Part shown: piece by piece, positions 7,259-62,643 of the stretch | How the letters are laid out: each line of letters begins with the position of its first letter | How positions within the stretch are numbered: the first letter of the stretch is position 1 | Assembly: GCA_947646915.1 (NCBI GenBank) | Contig: CANSII010000004.1 | Span: 3,214 to 67,213 of the forward strand | Source of the DNA: an uncultured Clostridium sp. | GTDB taxonomy: Bacteria; Bacillota; Clostridia; TANB77; CAG-508 | DNA length: 64,000 nucleotides | Direction: 5' to 3' | The notes under the pieces: model-generated | Database searches by the model: none | Told to the model about the DNA's origin: nothing | The model's input: only the letters and a program-made list of their open reading frames with translations | Translations under genes and position numbers: made by a program

Positions 7259-7402
7259 GCCTAATAATATGAATTTTCAAAAATCCCGTTCTCCAAGGCG
7301 TTTAAAATAGTAAAAACTCAAAGTAAATAGACACACTATAACGGATTAAAGTAAATAACGACTCATAGTCGAACTCATTTTTTCAAATTAATATTATTAG
7401 GC
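7259..7402 (-). repeat. Intergenic core-hairpin repeat, copy 2 (complete, P-type arms)
   Basis: GCCTAATAATATGAATTTTCAAAAA ... core in reverse orientation ... TTTTTTCAAATTAATATTATTAGGC. The arms form a perfect-to-near-perfect terminal inverted repeat. Confidence 0.85.
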
Positions 7403-11152: not shown

Positions 11153-12461
<1,309 letters not shown>

Positions 12462-28116: not shown

Positions 28117-28329
28117 TTAAGTTTCGATTTTTTATTTTTCAAACTTTATTATAGAAAAAAGATATATATTATAAAGCGAGTTTGACAGTAAGTAGTTATT
28201 AACTTTAAGTAATTATAGTGTGTCTCTAAGGTTTGATTGTTCAGTATCTTAAACGCCTTGGAAAACAGAGCTGAATAATATATATCTTTTTTCTAAATAT
28301 TATATTTTTTGCAAAAAGTCGAAACTTAA
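28117..28329 (+). repeat. Intergenic core-hairpin repeat, copy 6 (complete, two-tier O-type arms)
   Basis: TTAAGTTTCGATTTTTT...TAGAAAAAAGATATATAT-TATAAAGCGAGTTTGACAG...TTATAGTGTGTCTCTAAGG...CAGTATCTTAAACGCCTTGGAAAACAGAGCTGAATA-ATATATATCTTTTTTCTA...AAAAAGTCGAAACTTAA. Confidence 0.85.
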
Positions 28330-30592: not shown

Positions 30593-30703
30593 ATCTAATA
30601 ATATAATTTAAGTAAATGAGTTCGACCATGAGTTGTTTTTTACTTTAAGTCATTATAATGTGTCTCTAAAATATAATTGTTCAGTATTTTAAATGCCTTG
30701 GAT
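30593..30703 (+). repeat. Intergenic core-hairpin repeat, copy 7 (P-like left arm plus core; right arm missing)
   Basis: ATCTAATAATATAATTTAAGTAAATGAGTTCGACCATGAGTTG...CATTATAATGTGTCTCTAAAATATAATTGTTCAGTATTTTAAATGCCTTGGA. Confidence 0.75.
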
Positions 30704-31146: not shown

Positions 31147-31389
31147 TTTAAGTTTGGGTTTTTTAAGATTTTCATTTTAAGTTTTGGCATTTTGCAAAAA
31201 ATATATTATATAGAGAAAAGATATATATTATTCAGCTCTGTTTTCCAAGGTGTTTAAGATATTGAACATTCAAACCTTAGAGACACACTATAATGACTTA
31301 AAGTGAATAACGACTCACTGTCAAACTCGCTTTATAATATATATCTTTTTTCTATAATAAAGTTTGAAAAATAAAAAACCGAGGCTTAA
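31147..31389 (-). repeat. Intergenic core-hairpin repeat, copy 8 (complete O-type, inverted relative to copy 6; one terminal arm duplicated)
   Basis: Its reverse complement aligns end to end with 28117..28329 (roughly 90 percent identity by eye). There is an extra TTAAGTTTGGGTTTTTT at 31147. Confidence 0.85.
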
Positions 31390-31478: not shown

Positions 31479-32942
31479 TTATCTAATTTTATATTCCAAA
31501 TATACATTTTCATCAATCTGTTTTAATTTTTCTAGCTGCCTCTTAGTAATATTTATAACATTGCCACAACAAGGTTTAAAATCTTTATTACCATATACTA
31601 ACCAAATAATATTTTCCCTTTTTAAATCTTCTTTTGGCATTGTTCCAGGGCAAGGATAACCATCAGTAAAAACTATTTTATTTATCTCTCTTTTTTTGGT
31701 AAATGACCTAACTGCTAAATCCCAATCTTCTGTCCATGCTGAACTTCCACGAGCTTGCTCAGGAATAGTAAAGTTATCTATATCTTTTACATTTTTTATA
31801 TTTACAAATCCCCAAAATTTTTCATTGAAACATGCTACTCTTAATTTTGATTGTTTTAATAGTGGTTTCAATTGTCTTAAAAATGCTTTTACTAATTCTA
31901 AACTTACTGAACCTGAAACATCAATCATAATTTCTGTTTCAGCCTCATCTTCTATGTCATATTCTTCTAATCTATATGCATAATTATTTTCTGCAATAGA
32001 TCTACGATTACTCCAAATTGTTTCAGATTTTTCTATTTCTTTTCTTACCATAGTTTTCCAATCAATTTCTTGACTACTATGCCCTATATTTTCTAATTTA
32101 ATGTTTTTATCATTACTTATTATACTCTTTTTAGTCTTTTCACTATTTTTCTTAAATTTTTCTCTTTTTTCTTTTCTATTATTTTCAAATTCCTCTCTTT
32201 CATCAAAAGTTGTCCCTGTTTCATTTTCTACTTCATTTTTACTTGAAGCTTGTTCTTTTGATTTTTTTACTTGTTTTGAACTTTTTTCCATTTCTTTATC
32301 TTCTTGTTGTTGCTTCTTAAAAGCCTCCTCCCATAAACTATGGTCATCACCTTGCCCTTTTTCTTTATCCTGATCTTGCTTTTGTTCATTACCTTGCCCT
32401 TTTTCTTGCTCCTGATCTTGCTTTTGTTCATTACCTTGCCCGTTTTCTTGCTCCTGATCTTGCTTTTGTTCATTACCTTGCCCGTTTTCTTGCTCCTGAT
32501 CTTGCTTTTGTTCATTATTTTTTCTTTCTAATAATATCTGATAAAATTCCTCTGCTGAATAATTTAATGCTTCTGGCATATTTACATATCCTTTTTTAAC
32601 AGTAAAACCATCTCTTTCTAAATTTGCATTTATAATAGCATCAGTTGCTATATTCCAAAGCTCATCATCTCTCTTTTTCCCATTTTTATCCAATAATCTA
32701 TACATATGTAAAAATTTAATGTGCAATATTTCATGTGCAATTAAAAATAATTTATCATTTTCATTCAAACTTGCAAAATAGTTTGGATCAACATAAATAT
32801 TTTCTCCATCAGTTGCTGCAGTATGATATTTTAAGTTTTCACTATACTCAATATTGATATTAGCTACATCACTACCAAATCTTGGATATTTTGCTAACAT
32901 TTTTCGTTTAATATCATAAATCAAATCTGTATTAGTATCCAT
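31479..32942 (-). CDS. HExxH metallopeptidase-like + vWA (MIDAS DxSGS) protein, DUF2201-type partner of MoxR-like ATPases
   Basis: 487 aa, RBS AAGGAGG. N-terminal LIAHEILHIKFLH, a central E/K/Q-rich linker with four 14-aa repeats, and a C-terminal IMIDVSGSVS vWA-like domain. Confidence 0.75.
   Translation of the reverse strand: MDTNTDLIYDIKRKMLAKYPRFGSDVANINIEYSENLKYHTAATDGENIYVDPNYFASLNENDKLFLIAHEILHIKFLHMYRLLDKNGKKRDDELWNIATDAIINANLERDGFTVKKGYVNMPEALNYSAEEFYQILLERKNNEQKQDQEQENGQGNEQKQDQEQENGQGNEQKQDQEQEKGQGNEQKQDQDKEKGQGDDHSLWEEAFKKQQQEDKEMEKSSKQVKKSKEQASSKNEVENETGTTFDEREEFENNRKEKREKFKKNSEKTKKSIISNDKNIKLENIGHSSQEIDWKTMVRKEIEKSETIWSNRRSIAENNYAYRLEEYDIEDEAETEIMIDVSGSVSLELVKAFLRQLKPLLKQSKLRVACFNEKFWGFVNIKNVKDIDNFTIPEQARGSSAWTEDWDLAVRSFTKKREINKIVFTDGYPCPGTMPKEDLKRENIIWLVYGNKDFKPCCGNVINITKRQLEKLKQIDENVYLEYKIR
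32349..32516. repeat. 4 x 42-bp in-frame tandem repeat inside the vWA gene
   Basis: Unit ACCTTGCCC(T/G)TTTTCTTGCTCCTGATCTTGCTTTTGTTCATT at 32349, 32391, 32433 and 32475. Encodes (NEQKQDQEQENGQG)n on the minus strand. Confidence 0.9.
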
Positions 32943-32974
32943 TTTGTATTACCTCCTTAACAACATCTGTAATT

Positions 32975-33340
32975 TTAAAATGCAACTACACAAAAATGAT
33001 ATAGTTCTTTTGATATTTTTTTTAATGATTCTTTATCTTCAACAGTAAGGACTATAATCACATCTTTTGGTAAATTATAGCCATAATATTCTCTGTCTTT
33101 AACTATTTGGTAATATTTGTTTTGTGTATTTTCATCTATTTTATCTATTCCAATAATTATAAAATAATTTAATTCTTCATTATTAAATATTTTTTCTTTA
33201 AAATAGGTAATTAATTCATTATCATTTATATTTGCATTAATAACAACTTTTGAATTTAACTTATTATAATCTTCATTTGAAATTACAACACAAGTTGCAT
33301 TACAGCCTTTTTGTAATTCTATTAATTCTTTATCAATCAT
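32975..33340 (-). CDS. hypothetical protein (DGR/AAA+ operon member)
   Basis: 121 aa, RBS AGGAGA. Co-directional between the 152-aa ORF and the vWA gene. Confidence 0.5.
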   Translation of the reverse strand: MIDKELIELQKGCNATCVVISNEDYNKLNSKVVINANINDNELITYFKEKIFNNEELNYFIIIGIDKIDENTQNKYYQIVKDREYYGYNLPKDVIIVLTVEDKESLKKISKELYHFCVVAF

Positions 33341-33438
33341 CTTAAATTTTCTCTCCTTTTATATTTATTTTTACACTTTTTAATTTTAAAATTGCTACAC
33401 TTCACAGCCAATATTAGCCTTAATATAAAAAGTGTTTT

Positions 33439-33897
33439 CTATAATGTAAAAAAATTTAATATTTTGTTAATAACTTTTTTAAATAAACTTTCTTTATTAC
33501 AAATTGCCATACTTGTCCCTGTTTCTCTTACATTTTGAACTTTTACTAATTGCTGACTTTCTATTTTATCTTTAAAAATATTGTTCACATCATACTTTTC
33601 ATTTACTTCTACTTTTTCTATATGTTTTTCATGAATTAAATTTTTATATTTTATTCGTTCTGATTCATTGCACCACCAAGTAATATAAATAAATCCTAAA
33701 AGCTCTCTAGTTTGTTTTCTTAAATTAAAACCATCTAATGGATATTCATGATTAAAATTTACTTGATAACTTTTATTTGATATTTCTGTTAAAAACTTTA
33801 TAAAGCTTTGTGGTATTTTACTTACAGCGTCTTTATCTGTATGATTTAGTATATCTAATACTTCTACTGCTGCTTCACTATATTCAATATTTGTCAT
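33439..33897 (-). CDS. hypothetical protein (DGR/AAA+ operon member)
   Basis: 152 aa from ATG 33897 (GAGGTG RBS). Overlaps the stop of the AAA+ target gene by 14 nt, suggesting translational coupling. Confidence 0.5.
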   Translation of the reverse strand: MTNIEYSEAAVEVLDILNHTDKDAVSKIPQSFIKFLTEISNKSYQVNFNHEYPLDGFNLRKQTRELLGFIYITWWCNESERIKYKNLIHEKHIEKVEVNEKYDVNNIFKDKIESQQLVKVQNVRETGTSMAICNKESLFKKVINKILNFFTL

Positions 33898-36100
33898 TTT
33901 CTTCACCTCTATCTTTATCTTTTGTTAAAAAAGTATTATACATTTGTCCAATTTTTGTATATGATGATACTCCATCTTGCGCATATTCTTTTGTTTCGTT
34001 TTCATTATGTAATGATGAAGATAATTCTTGTAATTCACTTATTTTTTCCATTCTTCTTTCATCTTTTCCAGCCCAATATATATCATAAATTGACAAATAT
34101 TCTGGATCACAATATTTTCTAATAAATTCTCTACATACTTCAACTTGACTTTCATTAGCAGTTAATAATGCCATTATATATGCATATCTTTCATTTATAT
34201 TTTCAGGTAAATCTGCTTCACTATATCCTTTTCCGATTCCTTCTACTACTTCTTCTGGTGTTAATGTTGGAAGATTATAATAATCAAAAAACTCCTCTGC
34301 CCATTCTAAACGTAATTTTGAGTCTATTGATCTTTTAAGTATATCCTCAACATCTTTTCCTTCATATTTTCCTGATTCCAAGTTTTTTTCAAAATTATAT
34401 AATGTATTTGAAATTGATGCCCAACCACGTGGATCATTCGTCCTTCCCTTACAATCATTTTCATCAAGCTTTTGTTCTCCTACTTCAGGCTCTTCGTAAA
34501 AATATCCCATATTTTTGATATCTTCACTTTTTCCATTATTCAAATAATTTGATAATATATATCCTATAACCATTGGATGAATTTTTCGTGGAATTGCATA
34601 ATCTGTTATCCACTCTCCTACTTTTGGTTTCATATCTAATATATGGTCAAATCTCTTCTCTAATGGCTCTGCTAATTCTTCTGCAACATTTGAATATTTC
34701 TTTTGATTTCCAGTTGCTACAACTACTACATTATCTGGTAATTTTAATCCATTACCTATTTCTACTATTCTATTTAATACTAAGGTATATACTAAACTTT
34801 GAACAGCAGGTTTAACATTCAACAGCTCATCTAACAAAATTACTACTTTTTTATCACTTGTCTTAGATCTTTTATAAACTGTATCAGCTATTTTATATAT
34901 ATTCTGAATATTTTCTTCAATTAATTTTTTCTCTTCTTCAGTTGCTTCTTGCATAATAGCTGTTTTGGCAAAATCTGGTGGAATGCTTTGTCCTGTTTGT
35001 AAATTAGTTGAACCTACTACTTTTTCTGGAAACATGTTGTTTGTTAATTTCATATATATTAAATCTGGATATAATGATTTAATTCTTTCTGTTTTTCCTA
35101 TTCCAGATGGTCCTCTAAGTAATACTGATTCTCCTGATTCAATCCAATTATGTATTATTTCAGTATCAGTCATTTTAGTTCTATCAGTATAATTAGTTTT
35201 ATCTGGATTTAATTTCTCTATTCTAGACTTCTTTTTCTTATTTTCTTCTGTTTTCTCAGGTTCTTTTTCTAAACTTCCTATACTTTTTACCTGTTCTAAA
35301 TCTTTAGAAAAATTTTCATCCATAAATTCTTTTATAAATACTTTGTCAAAATTCTCTGTTTCATAATCACTTATCTCATTAAATTGTACACCTGCAAAAA
35401 TTATTTTATCAGCTAACATAATTCTTGCTTTTTCATCAACTAACCATTTTACTGGAGCAACTTCAATCCAAACATAATCTCCCCTATTATATTCTTCTCC
35501 ATTTGAAAGAGTAACTTTATTATAACATGAATTTGCTTTAACTCTTATATATCTCTTTCCATTATACTCATATTCTATATGAACTTGTGGTTCAAATGAT
35601 TCATCATATTCATCATATTTTTTTGAATCTGTTATATAACTATTTCCATTTAGTGAAATAGTTTTGTTTTTATATTCTTTTTCTAACTTTCTTTGCATGT
35701 CCTTTGAAGCAGCTTTTTGAGGATAATATCCATATTCTACTTCAAGGAAACCATCACTTGCTCTTCTCCCACTCTCTCCGTTCGTGGGGATTGATCTGAT
35801 TGATGAGAACGGTAAAGCTGGGCGTGCCCCAACATTACGTCTATCAACTCTACATCAAAGTCTAGAACCATTATAGTCAACCGCGCGCGCGTCGTGATCG
35901 TCATCATCAGATTTAGTCCAATATATGCCAGTTCTTCCCTCTAAAAAACTATCATCTCCTATATGATCATCATTAGAAACTATACCACCTAAAAGTATAG
36001 AAAAATCTGTGATTGCTGCCTTTACACCTCTTTTTTTTAATATATCTAATTGTTCATCCTCAAAGCATTGCTCTTGTGTCAAAAAAGTAAATTTTTCCAT
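33884..36100 (-). CDS. DGR target: N-terminal variable (VR-bearing) module fused to a MoxR/AAA_5-like AAA+ ATPase; one in-frame TGA at 35855..35857
   Basis: ORFs 35855..36100 (81 aa, strong AGGAGG RBS) and 33884..35698 (604 aa, no good RBS) are in the same frame. A single TGA and 52 open codons separate them. Walker A LLRGPSGIGKTE, Walker B VVILLDELLN. The VR covers codons 70-95. No signal peptide or TM. Confidence 0.85.
35818..35893 (-). repeat. DGR variable repeat (VR)
   Basis: 76-bp gapless match to 37513..37588. 9 of the 10 mismatches fall at TR adenines on the coding strand. Starts with GACGCGCGCGCGG and ends with GGGGCACGCCCAG. Confidence 0.9.
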
Positions 36101-36198
36101 ATCAATTTCCTCCTAATAATTATACTACTATATTTTTACAAAATTCTCTTTTTTATTTTTTTCCATTTTATCACATCTATTATTTTTTTGGAATAGTT

Positions 36199-37239
36199 TT
36201 ACATTTTTTTTTGTGGAAAAGTATCATTTTTTAATTTTTGACTTTCTTTTGTATCTTTTATATGATTATAAAAAGCATTTTTTCTAATGTAAACATATTC
36301 TTCATCAACAATATCTTTATTTCTCAATTTATTTAATACTTTTAAGTGTTTTATTAATCTTTGTTTAGATGATGCACGTAATTTTCTTGTTATACTACCA
36401 TTTTCATTTAAAATATGTCTATATCCCAAAAAGTCTATTCCATTTTTTACAATTCCTATTTGTGTTTTTTGATTAAGTTCCAATTTTAACTCTTGTTTAC
36501 ACTTTTCTTCAATCTTAAAAAGAGCATTTTGTAAAAAGCTCTTATCTCTATGAATTAATATCATATCATCCATATAACGAACATATCCTTTTACTCTTAA
36601 TTCCTCTTTAATAAATCTATCAATTACATTTAGATAAAAAAGTGCAAACCATTGACTTGATTGATTTCCAAGTGGTAATCCAATATCTGCATTATTAGGT
36701 TGCTCTTTTATTAATTTTTCTATTAACCACATCTCATCACTTGAAAATTTTATATTTTTCAATAAATTTAATAAAACTTCATGATTTATACTTTGAAAAT
36801 ACTTTTTAATGTCACATTTTAAAAAATAAATTTTATGATTTTGCTCTTTTCTATATTCATCTCTTAAAAACTTTTCTAGCCTTTTAATTGCAAATGTAGT
36901 CCCTTTACCTTTTCTACAAGCTGCATTATCAAATATTAGTTTTTTCTCTATTTTATGTTTTAATATTACATCACAAAAACATTTTATAACTACTCTATCT
37001 TTAAAAGGTAATGCTTCTATTATTCTTTCTTTTGGTTCATGTATTAAAAATACCTTATATTTTCCTAATTTATACTTTTTAGAAGTTATTTCTTGTATTA
37101 AATTACTAATATTAGTAGATAAACTTGCTTCAAATCTAATTACTTCCCCTTTATGTTGCTTTGATTTTCTACAGTCTTTATATGCTTCATATAAATTGTT
37201 AAATGTAAAAATTTCTTCTAAAATCATATTTAAGTTCAT
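36199..37239 (-). CDS. DGR-type reverse transcriptase
   Basis: 346 aa. RT motifs include LPLGNQSSQWFALFYLN (the DGR-characteristic G...SQ in motif 4) and YVRYMDDMIL (YxDD). No maturase or endonuclease domains. Confidence 0.93.
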   Translation of the reverse strand: MNLNMILEEIFTFNNLYEAYKDCRKSKQHKGEVIRFEASLSTNISNLIQEITSKKYKLGKYKVFLIHEPKERIIEALPFKDRVVIKCFCDVILKHKIEKKLIFDNAACRKGKGTTFAIKRLEKFLRDEYRKEQNHKIYFLKCDIKKYFQSINHEVLLNLLKNIKFSSDEMWLIEKLIKEQPNNADIGLPLGNQSSQWFALFYLNVIDRFIKEELRVKGYVRYMDDMILIHRDKSFLQNALFKIEEKCKQELKLELNQKTQIGIVKNGIDFLGYRHILNENGSITRKLRASSKQRLIKHLKVLNKLRNKDIVDEEYVYIRKNAFYNHIKDTKESQKLKNDTFPQKKM

Positions 37240-37600
37240 TCCCTTCGTTTGCGATTATTATTCTTTGAAAATAAAAAGTTTCATAGTGTTTCCTTCCCAA
37301 CACAATCAAAAAGAATGCCCCTTATAACTCACAAAAAATAGTTTTCTATTTGTTGTTTGTGTAAGCATTCATATTCTTCCACCGCACTATTTCTTTAGCG
37401 GTTAGAAAAGAGAAAAATTCCTTCACTTTAAAATACTGATATATTTACCTTAAAATATATTTCTCTGATTCTTTTTTAAACCCACTTTTAAAAGGATTTA
37501 CCAAAAGTGAATCTGGGCGAGCCCCAACATTACGTTTATTAACTTTATATCAATTTCTATTACCATTATAGTTAACCGCGCGCGCGTCAAAGCAGACGGG
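37240..37600 (-). ncRNA. DGR template RNA (TR 37513..37588 plus TR-RT spacer)
   Basis: Non-coding interval between avd and RT containing the TR. On the RNA, a hairpin CACTTTTGG...AAAAGTG (about 37484..37510) immediately follows the TR, and a second hairpin CCGC/GCGG lies near 37381..37405. Confidence 0.6.
37513..37588 (-). repeat. DGR template repeat (TR)
   Basis: GACGCGCGCGCGGTTAACTATAATGGTAATAGAAATTGATATAAAGTTAATAAACGTAATGTTGGGGCTCGCCCAG on the minus strand. Rich in AAY codons in the target frame. Confidence 0.9.
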
Positions 37601-37659
37601 GCAACAAAAAACCACTAAATAAATTTTTCTCTTAATTAAAAGCCTTTCAGCTTAAAATC

Positions 37660-38241
37660 CTAACTTCGTTTTTTCCATCTTTCATCATCACTCTTTTTCC
37701 ATGCTATTGTCAAGTTAATTGCTTCAGATAATTGTAATGAAATTTGCTTGTATTGTTTATTTAGTATACATCCAAAGTTTTCTGCTACCATAGAAACATA
37801 TCCTAATAATTTTAATTTTACTATTGCCTCTTTTTGAAGCTCTTCTCTTTTTACTTTCTTTTCTATTGCATCCATTCTAATAAAATTTGCTTCTAATAAT
37901 ACTTCTAATGTATCAAGACAATAGTTTTGCATTCTATTTACAAATACACCTCTATATTTTTTTGGCGATTTTTCTGTAACTGCAATTGTATATGCTGTTA
38001 GCTTCTTTACTACTGTTATTACCATCAAATCATTTGCATTAAATGGTATTTTATTTATTTCTTCTAACTCATTATCATTTGCTACACTTTCAGTAACTTG
38101 CTTTTTATTAAACCTTTTATTCTCTGCTGTAGCAATTGCTTGCTTAACAGCAACTTTATCTTCTACACTATTTTCAGTTCCATTGTAATTTTCTAATTTT
38201 TTAGGTATTTTCAAATTACTATCTCTACTTACTTGTATCAT
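37660..38241 (-). CDS. avd: DGR accessory variability determinant (Avd-like four-helix-bundle protein) with ~70-aa N-terminal extension
   Basis: 193 aa, RBS AAGGAG. The C-terminal ~120 aa (VVKKLTAYTIAVTEKSPKKYRGVFVNRMQNYCLDTLEVLLEAN...basic tail WKKSDDERWKKRS) look Avd-like. Located immediately 5' of the TR. Confidence 0.75.
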   Translation of the reverse strand: MIQVSRDSNLKIPKKLENYNGTENSVEDKVAVKQAIATAENKRFNKKQVTESVANDNELEEINKIPFNANDLMVITVVKKLTAYTIAVTEKSPKKYRGVFVNRMQNYCLDTLEVLLEANFIRMDAIEKKVKREELQKEAIVKLKLLGYVSMVAENFGCILNKQYKQISLQLSEAINLTIAWKKSDDERWKKRS

Positions 38242-38407
38242 TTTTATTCTCCTTATATTGCTCTATTTTTTAGTACAATTTTTGTTCCATTTAAATTCTT
38301 TGTTTACTTTAAAGCATTTATTGTATAATTAACATTTATAGCAAAACGATTATATACTTTTTTATATAATCGTTTGTTAATATTCACAGCCTTAAAAATA
38401 ATTACAG

Positions 38408-38556
38408 AAAAGGTTATAAATATAATATTTAAATTGAGTTCGACCATGAGTTGTTTTTCACTTTAATCAATTATAGTGTGTATCTAAAATATGAATATTC
38501 AGTATATTAAACACCTTGGAGAAAGGAAATCTTAAATATTATATTTATAACCTTTT
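38408..38556 (+). repeat. Intergenic core-hairpin repeat, copy 9 (complete, Q-type arms)
   Basis: AAAAGGTTATAAATATAATATTTAAATTGAGTTCGACCATGAGTTG...TTATAGTGTGTATCTAAAATATGAATATTCAGTATATTAAACACCTTGGAGAAAGGAAATCTTAAATATTATATTTATAACCTTTT. Confidence 0.85.
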
Positions 38557-38604
38557 TATGTTAAGTTTAATATTGGCTGTGAATTGTAACAATCATTCTA
38601 AAAT

Positions 38605-39294
38605 TTATCTTAAAAACATTATTAATCCAAATACAATAATTTTAAATATAATTAAAGAAAAAATTTGAAAATTAACACATTTAATACCAACATCATTTAA
38701 CTCATCATATTTACTTATCATATTATTAATTTCATCTTTAGAAGAAATTTTTTGATTTTCCATATATTCTTTTGCTAAAAATTTCGCTTTAATCATAGCA
38801 TCATTTTCTAAAAACATTCTAACAGAATACTGTACTAACCCTAATATGGCTAATATAGTTAAAAACATCATACTATTTGGTAAGATGTTAAAAAACTCTA
38901 AAATACAAATTACAAAAAAGTATAAATTAAATATGTTAGAAAATATAAAATTAAACCATAATAATTTTTTGCTTTGTACAGAATGTAAACATTCATGTGC
39001 CAATGTTTGTATTCTTGTAAAATTATTTTTTAAATTGGCTATAAAAATTTTATTTCCCATTACAAAATACATTGTTGTATTTGCATCTTGCTGTTCTTCT
39101 ATTTTTACATCTTCATTTTTTAACATTTTTAAATATGTTTTACATATATCTATATTCTCTGGATATTTTTCAGCTATTTTGTTTAATTCTTCATTTTGTG
39201 TTATCTCTTTTAGTTTATTTACATTTGCACCAAAAACATATTTTAATACGAAAAACATTACCATAACAATAATAAATATAACAAAAAATTCCAT
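38605..39294 (-). CDS. multi-TM protein with HExxH motif (putative membrane zinc metalloprotease)
   Basis: 229 aa from ATG 39294 (RBS CAGGAGGAT). Motif LAHECLHSVQ. The ORF-track extension to 39381 runs into the repeat array and is rejected. Confidence 0.55.
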   Translation of the reverse strand: MEFFVIFIIVMVMFFVLKYVFGANVNKLKEITQNEELNKIAEKYPENIDICKTYLKMLKNEDVKIEEQQDANTTMYFVMGNKIFIANLKNNFTRIQTLAHECLHSVQSKKLLWFNFIFSNIFNLYFFVICILEFFNILPNSMMFLTILAILGLVQYSVRMFLENDAMIKAKFLAKEYMENQKISSKDEINNMISKYDELNDVGIKCVNFQIFSLIIFKIIVFGLIMFLR

Positions 39295-39336
39295 ACATAT
39301 CCTCCTGTTATCTATAAATAAAATATATATTATAAA

Positions 39337-39723
39337 TCCTAATAATATTAATTTGAAAAAACGAGTTTGACAGTGAGTCATTATTCACTCCAACCTTCTA
39401 TAGTGTGTATCTAAAATATGAATATTCCGTGTCTTAAACGCCTTGGAAAACGGAGTTTTTGAAAATTCATATTATTAGGATTTATAATATGAATTTGATA
39501 ATACGAGTTTGACAGTGAATCATTATTCACTCCAACCTTCTATAGTGTGTATCTAAAATATAAATATTCCGTGTCTTAAACGCTTTGAAAAACGGAGTTT
39601 TTGAAAATTCATATTATCAGGATTTATAATATGAATTTGATAATACGAGTTTGACAGTGAATCATTATTCACTCCAACCTTCTATAGTGTGTATCTATAT
39701 TATGAAAATTCATATTATTAGGA
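39337..39723 (+). repeat. Tandem array of three core-hairpin repeat units (copies 10-12, P-type arms, 142-bp period; third unit has a truncated core)
   Basis: Units begin at 39337, 39481 and 39623. Each carries (A/T)CGAGTTTGACAGTGA(G/A)TCATTATTCACTCCAACCTTCTATAGTGTGTATCTA. The first two continue to CGTGTCTTAAACGC(C/T)TTG(G/A)AAAACGGAGTTTTTGAAAATTCATATTAT. Confidence 0.9.
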
Positions 39724-40110: not shown

Positions 40111-40252
40111 GATGAATAATATTAATTTGAAAAAATGAGTTCGACCTGAGTCGTTCTTCACTTTAACCAGTTTTAGTGTGTCTCTAAATCAAATTGTTCA
40201 GTATCTTAAACGCCTTGAAGAACGGAATTTTTAAAAATTCATATTATTCAGC
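40111..40252 (+). repeat. Intergenic core-hairpin repeat, copy 13 (complete, P-like arms)
   Basis: GATGAATAATATTAATTTGAAAAAATGAGTTCGACCTGAGTCG...TTTTAGTGTGTCTCTAAATC...TTCAGTATCTTAAACGCCTTGAAGAACGGAATTTTTAAAAATTCATATTATTCAGC. Confidence 0.85.
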
Positions 40253-54351: not shown

Positions 54352-54472
54352 TTAAGTTTCGGTTTTTTATTTTCCAAACTTTATTATAGAAAAAAGATAT
54401 ATATTATAAAGCGAGTTTGATAGTGAATCGTTATTCACTTTAAGTCATCATAGTGTATCTCTATTTTTTTAT
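54352..54472 (+). repeat. Intergenic core-hairpin repeat, copy 14 (O-type left arm plus 5' two-thirds of core)
   Basis: TTAAGTTTCGGTTTTTTATTTTCCAAACTTTATTATAGAAAAAAGATATATATTATAAAGCGAGTTTGATAGTGAATCGTTATTCACTTTAAGTCATCATAGTGTATCTCT. Confidence 0.8.
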
Positions 54473-62430: not shown

Positions 62431-62643
62431 TTAAGTTTTGGTTTTTTCATTTTATAAATTTGATTTTAGAAAAAAGATATATATTTCAAAGTGAGTTCGA
62501 CCATGAGTCATTATTCACTTTAACTTGTTATAATGTGTATCTTTACTTTGAATTTGCAATTTTTTAAACGCCTTGGAGAATGGAACTGGGAAATATATAT
62601 CTTTTTTCTAAATAATATAATTTTGTCAAACGCCGAAACTTAA
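62431..62643 (+). repeat. Intergenic core-hairpin repeat, copy 16 (complete, two-tier O-type arms)
   Basis: TTAAGTTTTGGTTTTTT...TTAGAAAAAAGATATATAT-TTCAAAGTGAGTTCGACCATGAGTCATTATTCACTTTAAC...TTATAATGTGTATCT...TTTTAAACGCCTTGGAGAATGGAACTGGGAA-ATATATATCTTTTTTCTAAA...CGCCGAAACTTAA. Confidence 0.85.

Follow-up and report, generated by a model that had tools for sequence, protein, structure and literature searches.

What does a diversity-generating retroelement (DGR) do when it is placed next to genes of an ATPase operon? The question is raised by a cassette of genes in a 64,000-nt stretch of DNA, hereafter the window, from an uncultured Clostridium sp. (contig CANSII010000004.1, positions 3,214 to 67,213). 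An earlier reading of the letters alone, hereafter the original prediction, described there seven co-directional minus-strand units: avd, a template repeat (TR) with spacer RNA, a reverse transcriptase (RT) gene, a target gene with a variable region (VR), two small open reading frames (ORFs) of 152 and 121 codons, and a gene for a 487-residue von Willebrand factor A (vWA) protein. All seven were found again from the ORF list and the repeat pair. The analysis presented below makes us highly confident that a functional DGR family is coupled to a MoxR/vWA operon. For the cassette as a whole, we consider it rather probable that it encodes a DGR-diversified sensor carried by a MoxR-class ATPase with a zincin-vWA partner, and that the window genome holds an OFF allele of this sensor.

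The DGR components

The product of avd matched PHROG phrog_3206, "Avd protein of DGR", with an E-value of 1.8e-15, and carries an N-terminal extension of about 70 amino acids; matches to NCBIfam DivGenRetAVD (7.7e-7) and Pfam bAvd (0.0041) were both below cut-off. The RT was recognized by Pfam RVT_1 (1e-19) and by phrog_1423 (8e-96). Its translation contains LGNQSSQ, which fits the [LIV]GxxxSQ pattern, and YMDD; the SQ dipeptide is characteristic of DGR RTs (PMC3521204). The RT ORF has two candidate ATG starts, 37239 and 37227. A GAAGGGA sequence directly adjoins the first and stands at a suitable distance from the second, and gene calls on a nearly identical contig (L039, described below) use a start equivalent to 37227 (342 aa). 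The start at 37227 is more likely.

The TR and the VR align over 86 nt with 14 mismatches, 10 of which fall at TR adenines. The four others are located at or beside the 3′ boundary element. Three of them together form a constant 3′-end difference (TR ...CAGATTCACTTTT, VR ...CAGCTTTACCGTT) that recurs in every related locus, and one (T in the TR, A in the VR) lies inside a GC-rich element, GGGGCTCGCCCAG, which is conserved at the nucleotide level. The adenine-focused pattern was also observed in 10 other loci. In RT-bearing loci the VR version of the boundary, GGGGCTCGCCCAGCTTTAC, has 0–1 mismatch, and the TR-specific version at the 3′ end, ...CAGATTCAC, occurs once per locus. Judged by sequence, the GC-rich element and the TR version form the expected arrangement of an initiation of mutagenic homing site and its TR counterpart (IMH/IMH*). 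The TR-RT spacer had no Rfam match and its fold was not distinguishable from shuffles (z = -1.5); the predicted structure of the DNA downstream of the VR was no different from shuffles. With Avd, a TR, a DGR-type RT and a VR all present, the DGR at this locus is genuine.

The target gene and its AAA+ core

Translation of the target frame (36100..33884) gives 738 codons, interrupted once in frame by a TGA at codon 82, which lies within the VR. The gene is therefore not open, contrary to what had been assumed; the ORF list shows an 81-aa and a 604-aa piece instead, and the same calls are made in L039. No further stops were found in the 604-aa remainder of the frame. In the frame of the VR the TR reads DARAVNYNGNRN, a stop, and YKVNKRNVGARP, the stop being a TGA (AAT TGA TAT) at the position of target codon 82. 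Since the TR has TGA there, the codon-82 stop was copied from the template with its adenine unchanged. Because of this TGA the target allele is predicted to be truncated and the full-length sensor-ATPase not to be made, which we refer to as an OFF allele. The L039 contig, from another sample, is 99.94% identical and has the same VR, including the TGA; a third contig is listed with an identical 604-aa product.

A homologue search with the read-through target sequence returned 1,468 relatives. The best 120 of them are almost all 734–747 aa long and cover 99–100% of the query, so the VR module and the AAA+ core are, to judge from these homologues, one polypeptide in the family. The Walker A and Walker B motifs of the original prediction are present as GPSGIGKT (residue 330) and ILLDE (residue 421). 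The core matched Pfam AAA_5 (7.9e-7, 29.6 bits versus a cut-off of 22) and phrog_1297 (5e-31). For structural comparison we used an AlphaFold2 (AF2) model of homologue P0001, 83% identical to the target (predicted local distance difference test score, pLDDT, 92.3). A Foldseek search with this model gave NorQ as the best match (2.4e-9, template modeling (TM) score 0.65 on the target), followed by CbbQ (8.8e-8) and then by McrB and dynein. Since the model is closest to NorQ and CbbQ, and only then to McrB and dynein, we assign the core to the MoxR class, in agreement with what had been proposed. A MoxR-class ATPase of this kind is also found with other N-termini, for example WG repeats. The target's C-terminal region had no Pfam match even at E up to 10.

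The variable region and the N-terminal module

Among 118 full-length homologues, nine positions have an entropy above 2.5 bits, and all nine are within residues 75–89; G78, V85, R88 and G91 are invariant or nearly so. The strongest variability is thus confined to a part of the VR (codons 70–98), which lies in an N-terminal module as originally described. Of 124 protein pairs that are at least 99% identical outside the VR, 105 show differences in at least 5 of 17 VR columns. In five pairs the ~720 residues outside the VR are free of differences, against 8–10 inside it. Because near-identical homologues from metagenomes differ only in the VR, the target family evidently diversifies in nature.

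The AF2 model has one N-terminal domain over residues 1–278, which spans the position of the stop. Residues 1–270, the N-module, form one confidently modelled unit (pLDDT 93.8, predicted TM score 0.91). Its first subdomain (1 to ~118) bears the VR between strands 71–74 and 95–97; its second subdomain is beta-rich. A library search with P0001 produced 2,379 matches at E up to 0.001. Most of the best 150 of these share the N-module only, which is found alone (~270 aa) or fused elsewhere; Pfam scans of ten proteins revealed DUF4116, ankyrin and LRR_5 as fusion partners.

The N-module and the middle subdomain had no Pfam match even at E up to 10, and comparison of an N-module profile with PDB sequences returned nothing relevant. 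The best viral match of the N-module was a DUF6273 protein (E 0.023). Pfam DUF6273 was matched by 6 of 42 family members (best 1.4e-5) and Fib_succ_major by 2 of 42. In hhalign, the YWT...G...GxRP segment aligned with the VR of the tentaclin of gut phage nd12 (probability 64%, E 6.5e-5). DUF6273, models of which look like C-type lectins, has been documented as a target domain of DGRs, N-terminal cases included (PMC10743442, PMC11792537). The N-module is likely a divergent DUF6273/lectin-like module.

Conservation of the operon

We compared 34 loci from species-representative genomes and several metagenome contigs (numbered with the prefix L). These are metagenome-assembled genomes (MAGs) from the guts of humans, rabbits, chickens and mice, with labels of uncultured Clostridia, Clostridium or Bacilli. 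The shared gene order is avd-TR-RT-target-S152-S121-vWA487, where S152 and S121 are the two small proteins. The vWA partner was found downstream in every related locus with enough sequence, S152 is kept in most loci, after the target or after the first target copy, and S121 is kept as well. Avd and RT genes adjoin the operon in 13 of ~25 informative species-level loci, so the linkage survey upholds the proposed coupling of a DGR to an AAA+/vWA operon. Some RT-less loci have a perfect VR boundary element (L007, L011, L017) and others a degraded one (L016, L019, L020, L021, L029), which suggests a trans-acting DGR and a lost DGR, respectively.

Many loci contain a second target copy between the S121 and vWA genes (target-S152-S121-target-vWA in L002-L006, L009, L017, L019-L021, L042 and L043). 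Where the tandem copies were distinctly assembled, both match one TR and their VRs are different. The two assembled VRs are identical in L002, L003 and L019, which may be due to assembly collapse. Frameshifts in or after the VR were observed in several MAG copies (L004:2498, L027:8001, L019, L026); such copies may have become pseudogenes, or they may be chimeras assembled from heterogeneous VR populations.

A more distant operon is present on a 12.8-kb contig of a low-GC Firmicute (L036, ERZ25021404). Here the N-module and the AAA core are fused in two genes, which are accompanied by an S121-like gene and a gene for a metallopeptidase-vWA protein; a free-standing N-module comes next, and after it an AAA gene that is more divergent, carries an N-terminal extension and is paired with a vWA gene of its own. 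Viewed as sets of N-module, AAA_5 and DUF2201 genes, the locus has three in succession: two fused copies, one split set and a third that is more divergent. Among the paralogues, differences are greatest in the segment equivalent to the VR. No RT was found within 6 kb of this operon, and the association of sensor, ATPase and vWA protein would therefore be older than the capture of the DGR.

The vWA partner and the small proteins

The presence of a vWA protein with a metallopeptidase-like head was confirmed. VWA487 matched Pfam DUF2201_N (6.2e-22); the match to the VWA-like domain DUF2201 was weak (0.028), but this domain is recorded for homologues. The protein contains the motif HEILH (70) and, for the metal ion-dependent adhesion site (MIDAS) motif of a vWA partner, DVSGS (341) and TDG; it matched phrog_1314 (5.2e-47) and is homologous to the metallopeptidase-vWA protein of phage PA5oct (2e-13). 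Its linker is acidic and Gln-rich, (E/D)QKQDQEQENGQGN, and is encoded by five 42-nt tandem repeats. The length of the linker is polymorphic, since L039 has one unit fewer (473 aa versus 487 aa).

S152 had no match in Pfam, PDB, PADLOC or PHROGs. S121 showed a weak match to Pfam DUF5887 and was weakly aligned by hhalign with target residues 420–467 (probability 68%, E 4.7e-5). In this alignment the S121 stretch IDKI...LPKDVIIVLTV faces LLDE...LPDNVVVVATGN of the target; S121 is without a Walker A motif. It may be a degenerate AAA+ fragment or subunit that extends from Walker B to sensor 1.

Templates that permit stop codons

The templates of DGRs are usually AAY-rich and avoid nonsense codons. 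In the window, L001 and L026, codon 82 of the TR is TGA; in L027 it is TAA, and in the other loci examined TAC or AAC. In L022 a TAA is present at codon 87 in TR and VR alike. The TRs also contain AAA and AGA codons. Under the assumption of uniform randomisation of every TR adenine, the computed share of retrohoming events that yield a stop is 36% for the window TR versus 11–19% for other TRs. L001 and L026 keep the TGA in their TRs, yet the VRs read GGC and TGT there and are open, which means that the frame can be reopened by a single event of retrohoming.

Nonsense VR alleles were found in four lineages: the window with L039, L022, L042 with L043, and L027. The frame is otherwise intact in the first three; in L027 the codon-82 TAA is accompanied by a one-base frameshift in the VR. 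L042 and L043, two samples of one other species, have two different VRs in target copy 1, both with a TGA derived from an AAA codon of the TR, and target copy 2 is open. A literature search found no description of a stop-permissive TR.

These observations make it a testable possibility that DGRs serve as phase-variation switches. Many retrohoming events would silence the target and later events would reopen the frame. That the DGR is a programmed ON/OFF switch for the sensor-ATPase, besides a diversifier, is a tentative proposal, and on balance we lean against it. If true, it would provide reversible, heritable gating of a costly or auto-toxic phage-sensing AAA+/protease machine in gut Clostridia. 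The OFF state in the window genome may reflect regulated switching, a by-product that is tolerated, or incipient decay.

Layout of the cassette and its surroundings

The features of the cassette are listed in Table 1. As originally noted, the genes have strong ribosome-binding sites (RBSs), an AGGAG-like sequence being seen before each start, and short or overlapping junctions, the S152 start being 14 nt ahead of the stop of the target frame. No hydrophobic segment was detected in any of the six cassette proteins, the target included, for which the lack of a signal peptide or transmembrane segment had been pointed out before. The system is therefore predicted to be cytoplasmic.

Table 1. Features of the cassette and copies of the dispersed repeat, in window coordinates
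Feature	Position	Strand	Basis or remark
avd, 193 aa	37660..38241	minus	ORF list
TR	37503..37588	minus	86-nt match to VR
TR-RT spacer	37240..37502	minus	presumed 3′ part of TR-containing RNA; position only
DGR RT	36199..37239	minus	346 aa as ORF; probably 342 aa from 37227
Target, 81 codons and in-frame TGA (35855-35857)	35855..36100	minus	ORF list and translation
VR, gene nt 208-293, codons 70-98	35808..35893	minus	TR match; includes 3′ boundary element GGGGCACGCCCAGCTTTAC
Remainder of target frame	33884..35854	minus	second half of N-module (to ~270), linker, AAA+ core, helical C-terminal region
604-aa ORF from Met135 (35698)	33884..35698	minus	remaining target frame as reported by gene callers
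AAA+ core, target residues ~326-489	~34634-35125	minus	Pfam AAA_5
S152, 152/155 aa	33439..33897/33906	minus	conserved small protein; overlaps target stop by 14 nt
S121, 121 aa	32975..33340	minus	conserved small protein
VWA487, 487 aa	31479..32942	minus	DUF2201_N, HExxH zincin-like domain, low-complexity linker, VWA-like domain
42-nt tandem repeats in VWA487 linker	32299..32550	minus	repeat search (family D1)
Intergenic repeat copies	38396-38570, 31241-31348, 30600-30702, 39363-39473, 40132-40245		and others
Further intergenic repeat copies	12339-12436, 7266-7381, 28158-28265, 62473-62604, 54393-54463

The genome has a G+C content of 25.5% and uses the standard code. An alternative genetic code was rejected: read with table 11 the long ORFs are continuous throughout, and 5 of 38 of them in the window end in TGA. 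The cassette is flanked by sporulation and housekeeping genes (ylbF, secG, rnr). No target relative was found on viral contigs in a scan with a single protein as query, and among the cassette proteins phage relatives are limited to the RT, Avd and the AAA and vWA families. Given the viral contigs without target relatives and the nature of the flanks, a prophage origin was rejected.

Directly upstream of avd, at 38605-39381 on the minus strand, lies a gene for a 258-aa multi-pass membrane protein with an HECLH motif and a weak match to the DUF6782 metallopeptidase family. Since L001, the closest relative, is the only one to have kept it, the gene is probably a neighbour outside the cassette.

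The block had been described as bounded by repeat copies at 38408 and 31389. These copies belong to a dispersed intergenic family of ~110–150 nt with at least 12 copies in the window, on both strands. The repeat bears 25–28-nt terminal inverted repeats (for example 38408-38432 and 38532-38556, 100% complementary), had no Rfam match in the part scanned and looks like a miniature inverted-repeat transposable element (MITE) or a repetitive extragenic palindromic (REP) element. Because at least 12 copies are spread over the window, the repeats do not delimit the cassette, and their role as cassette boundaries or attachment (att) sites was rejected.

Proposed mechanism and alternative explanations

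We propose that the DGR rewrites ~12 codons of a surface hairpin in the N-terminal DUF6273-like binding module by adenine-specific mutagenic retrohoming. The ATPase would be co-transcribed with S152, S121 and the zincin-vWA partner, and its AAA+ ring would most likely dock the vWA partner, as in NorQ-NorD and CbbQ-CbbO. The variable module would select a cytoplasmic ligand, probably a protein, and ATP hydrolysis would remodel this ligand or pass it to the metallopeptidase-like domain. The most likely role of such a machine would be the recognition of changing intracellular invaders, for example phage or plasmid proteins. The AAA-vWA contact, ligand binding, proteolysis and the defence role are what we infer. 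We have moderate confidence that the variable module picks a cytoplasmic ligand for ATP-driven remodelling or proteolysis; for an anti-phage or anti-plasmid role the chances are close to balanced, if anything somewhat below even.

Several observations weigh against a DGR-diversified defence sensor. A search of PADLOC-DB 2.0 gave nothing specific, only generic RT models and a weak DolB match of the AAA region (5e-6), with Avd, S152, S121 and the vWA protein left without a match. The cassette stands amid housekeeping genes, with no obvious defence island. For the jumbo-phage homologues of the AAA and vWA proteins, the published suggestion is a part in virion assembly and not in immunity (PMC7824862). 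In about half of the related operons no RT lies within 8 kb, and the operon therefore functions without an adjacent DGR. The window and L039 assemblies, which come from different samples, have one and the same VR, and the 604-aa product recurs on a third contig; the window strain thus shows no sign of DGR activity at present. Finally, the links to DUF6273 are modest (probability 64–66%), the target itself has no Pfam match in the N-module, and a Foldseek search of PDB with the isolated N-module gave no significant match (best E 0.03, TM < 0.2).

The alternative that survives best, though we consider it unlikely, is a dedicated chaperone or maturation system in which the ATPase, with the metallopeptidase-vWA protein as co-chaperone, would build or process a structure of host or prophage origin and the DGR would tune substrate choice for a polymorphic endogenous client. 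Characterised MoxR-vWA pairs (NorQD, CbbQO, RavA-ViaA) are indeed maturation or remodelling factors (PMC9976466, PMC13036017) and supply the best structural matches, the homologous jumbo-phage pair is proposed to act in virion assembly and peptidolytic processing (PMC7824862), and the neighbourhood of the cassette is a housekeeping one. However, it is not obvious why a fixed endogenous client would call for hypervariation of ~12 codons, and the unrelated VRs of near-identical strains fit a changing external ligand better. In addition, no candidate client gene is conserved beside the operon among the related loci.

Less likely still is that the window element is a decaying, non-functional remnant with a target pseudogene and an inactive DGR. 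Over half of the candidate DGRs in databases are defective (PMC5758913), and the in-frame TGA, the VR shared by the window and L039 (with the same 604-aa product on the third contig) and the non-adenine mismatch in the GC-rich element would all agree with decay. Against this, the RT, Avd, S152, S121 and vWA ORFs are all intact, and the 604-aa frame has acquired no further stops. Moreover, the stop is the TR's own codon rather than a random lesion, and L001 and L026 have open VRs despite the TGA in their TRs.

It is very improbable that the TGA is decoded as selenocysteine or read through to give a full-length protein. Cysteine at the codon-82 position in 25 of 118 homologues is reminiscent of families with selenocysteine and cysteine forms, but Tyr is the commonest residue there (68 of 118), and Cys and Trp are the exact products of adenine mutagenesis of TAY or TGA. 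An imperfect hairpin is located a few nucleotides downstream of the TGA; it is no better than shuffles (z = -1.6), its 5′ arm consists of hypervariable positions, and the region had no Rfam match, selenocysteine insertion sequence (SECIS) models included, at E up to 1. TGA is, besides, an ordinary terminator in the window.

That an unrelated decayed VR fragment merely precedes a separate AAA+ gene, the case named by the original prediction as fatal to it and suggested by the 81-aa and 604-aa calls in the window and L039, is scarcely credible, being refuted for the family by at least 118 full-length homologues that are single proteins (734–747 aa) aligned end to end, while the modelled N-terminal domain crosses the break and Met135 has no usable RBS before it.

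Comparison with known systems

The preferred reading, a DGR-diversified sensor on a MoxR-class ATPase, has close relatives in the literature: the general concept, for which the original prediction knew of no characterised example, has been published. DGR-diversified FGS/CLec domains are known in MoxR-vWA (VMAP) conflict systems of cyanobacteria, gammaproteobacteria and Thiohalocapsa (PMC7159879, PMC10907252). Like the present cassette, these systems combine a cellular DGR with a MoxR-class AAA+ ATPase and a vWA protein; their targets are predicted to be cytoplasmic, and the concept is that of a hypervariable intracellular sensor tied to an NTPase. In VMAP-type systems, however, it is a C-terminal FGE/CLec domain, usually that of the vWA component, that contains the VR; the MoxR ATPase is a protein of its own without diversification, and a VMAP protein with a peptidase or other effector is the third component. 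Here the VR is N-terminal and located on the ATPase itself, and the vWA protein has no VR, its extra domain being an N-terminal HExxH domain. No VMAP-like third component was recognised, although no VMAP profile was run, and S152 and S121 fall far short of VMAPs in length. The present hosts, gut Clostridia, are unicellular and form spores, as opposed to the multicellular bacteria of the VMAP-type systems.

[quoted passage not shown] As far as the accessible parts of the sources go (PMC5758913, PMC10907252), they resemble the present target in the fusion to an AAA-type ATPase, midasin being in the same AAA_5 group, and differ in their C-terminal VR, phylum and RT clade and in that no vWA-metallopeptidase partner is reported.

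The reversed gene order and the N-terminal VR, originally contrasted with textbook DGRs, also have a precedent. VRs are reported to be almost always C-terminal (PMC8144416), with N-terminal VRs in 3 of 372 curated DGRs (PMC5758913), but in the gut phages nd4 and nd12 the genes run avd-TR-RT-target and the VR is close to the 5′ end of the target (PMC10743442). Tentaclins and the other DUF6273 targets of nd4, nd12 and Faecalibacterium prophages (PMC10743442, PMC11792537) thus share gene order and 5′ VR with the cassette, and probably also the placement of the VR in a module of the DUF6273 type, for which models similar to C-type lectins have been obtained. Among phage RTs, that of nd12 comes closest, with 40% identity to the window RT. 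These targets are phage tail or receptor-binding proteins with Ig-like domains, whereas the module described here is shorter, has a second beta-rich subdomain, is fused to an ATPase and is encoded in a chromosomal operon.

The same MoxR AAA+ and metallopeptidase-vWA families (phrog_1297, phrog_1314) are present in group 2.2 jumbo phages (PMC7824862). In PA5oct, with blastp matches of 3e-16 (ATPase) and 2e-13 (vWA), the two genes are ~3 kb apart with small ORFs between them. The jumbo-phage ATPase has no N-terminal sensor module and no DGR, and its proposed role is in virion assembly (PMC7824862). NorQ-NorD and CbbQ-CbbO, which match the AAA+ core best in structure, depend on a vWA partner that has a MIDAS motif. 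They differ in serving one fixed enzyme client, by metal insertion or remodelling, and have no variable domain, HExxH domain or retroelement.

MoxR-vWA DGR sensors, AAA-fused targets, N-terminal DUF6273 VRs and pairs of MoxR and metallopeptidase-vWA proteins have therefore each been described separately, and literature searches for a DGR with AAA_5 or a DGR with DUF2201 gave no relevant results. The apparent novelty is that these features occur together in abundant gut Clostridia, along with a stop-permissive TR from which OFF alleles arise. It has been argued that cytoplasmic sensors diversified by DGRs are a bacterial counterpart of anticipatory immunity, with previous cases mostly in multicellular cyanobacteria, purple sulfur bacteria and CPR bacteria; the target family would extend this idea to abundant unicellular gut Clostridia of human, mouse, rabbit and chicken. 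It also offers a clean natural exception to the rule of C-terminal VRs. Since its VR is N-terminal, the cis elements of retrohoming must lie inside the coding sequence. With the variable domain on the motor protein and a protease-like domain on the partner, the compact four-gene system should be simpler to test. The architecture itself looks new: a MoxR ATPase of gut Clostridia that bears the VR on its own N-terminus, in a DUF6273-like form, and is partnered by a zincin-vWA protein.

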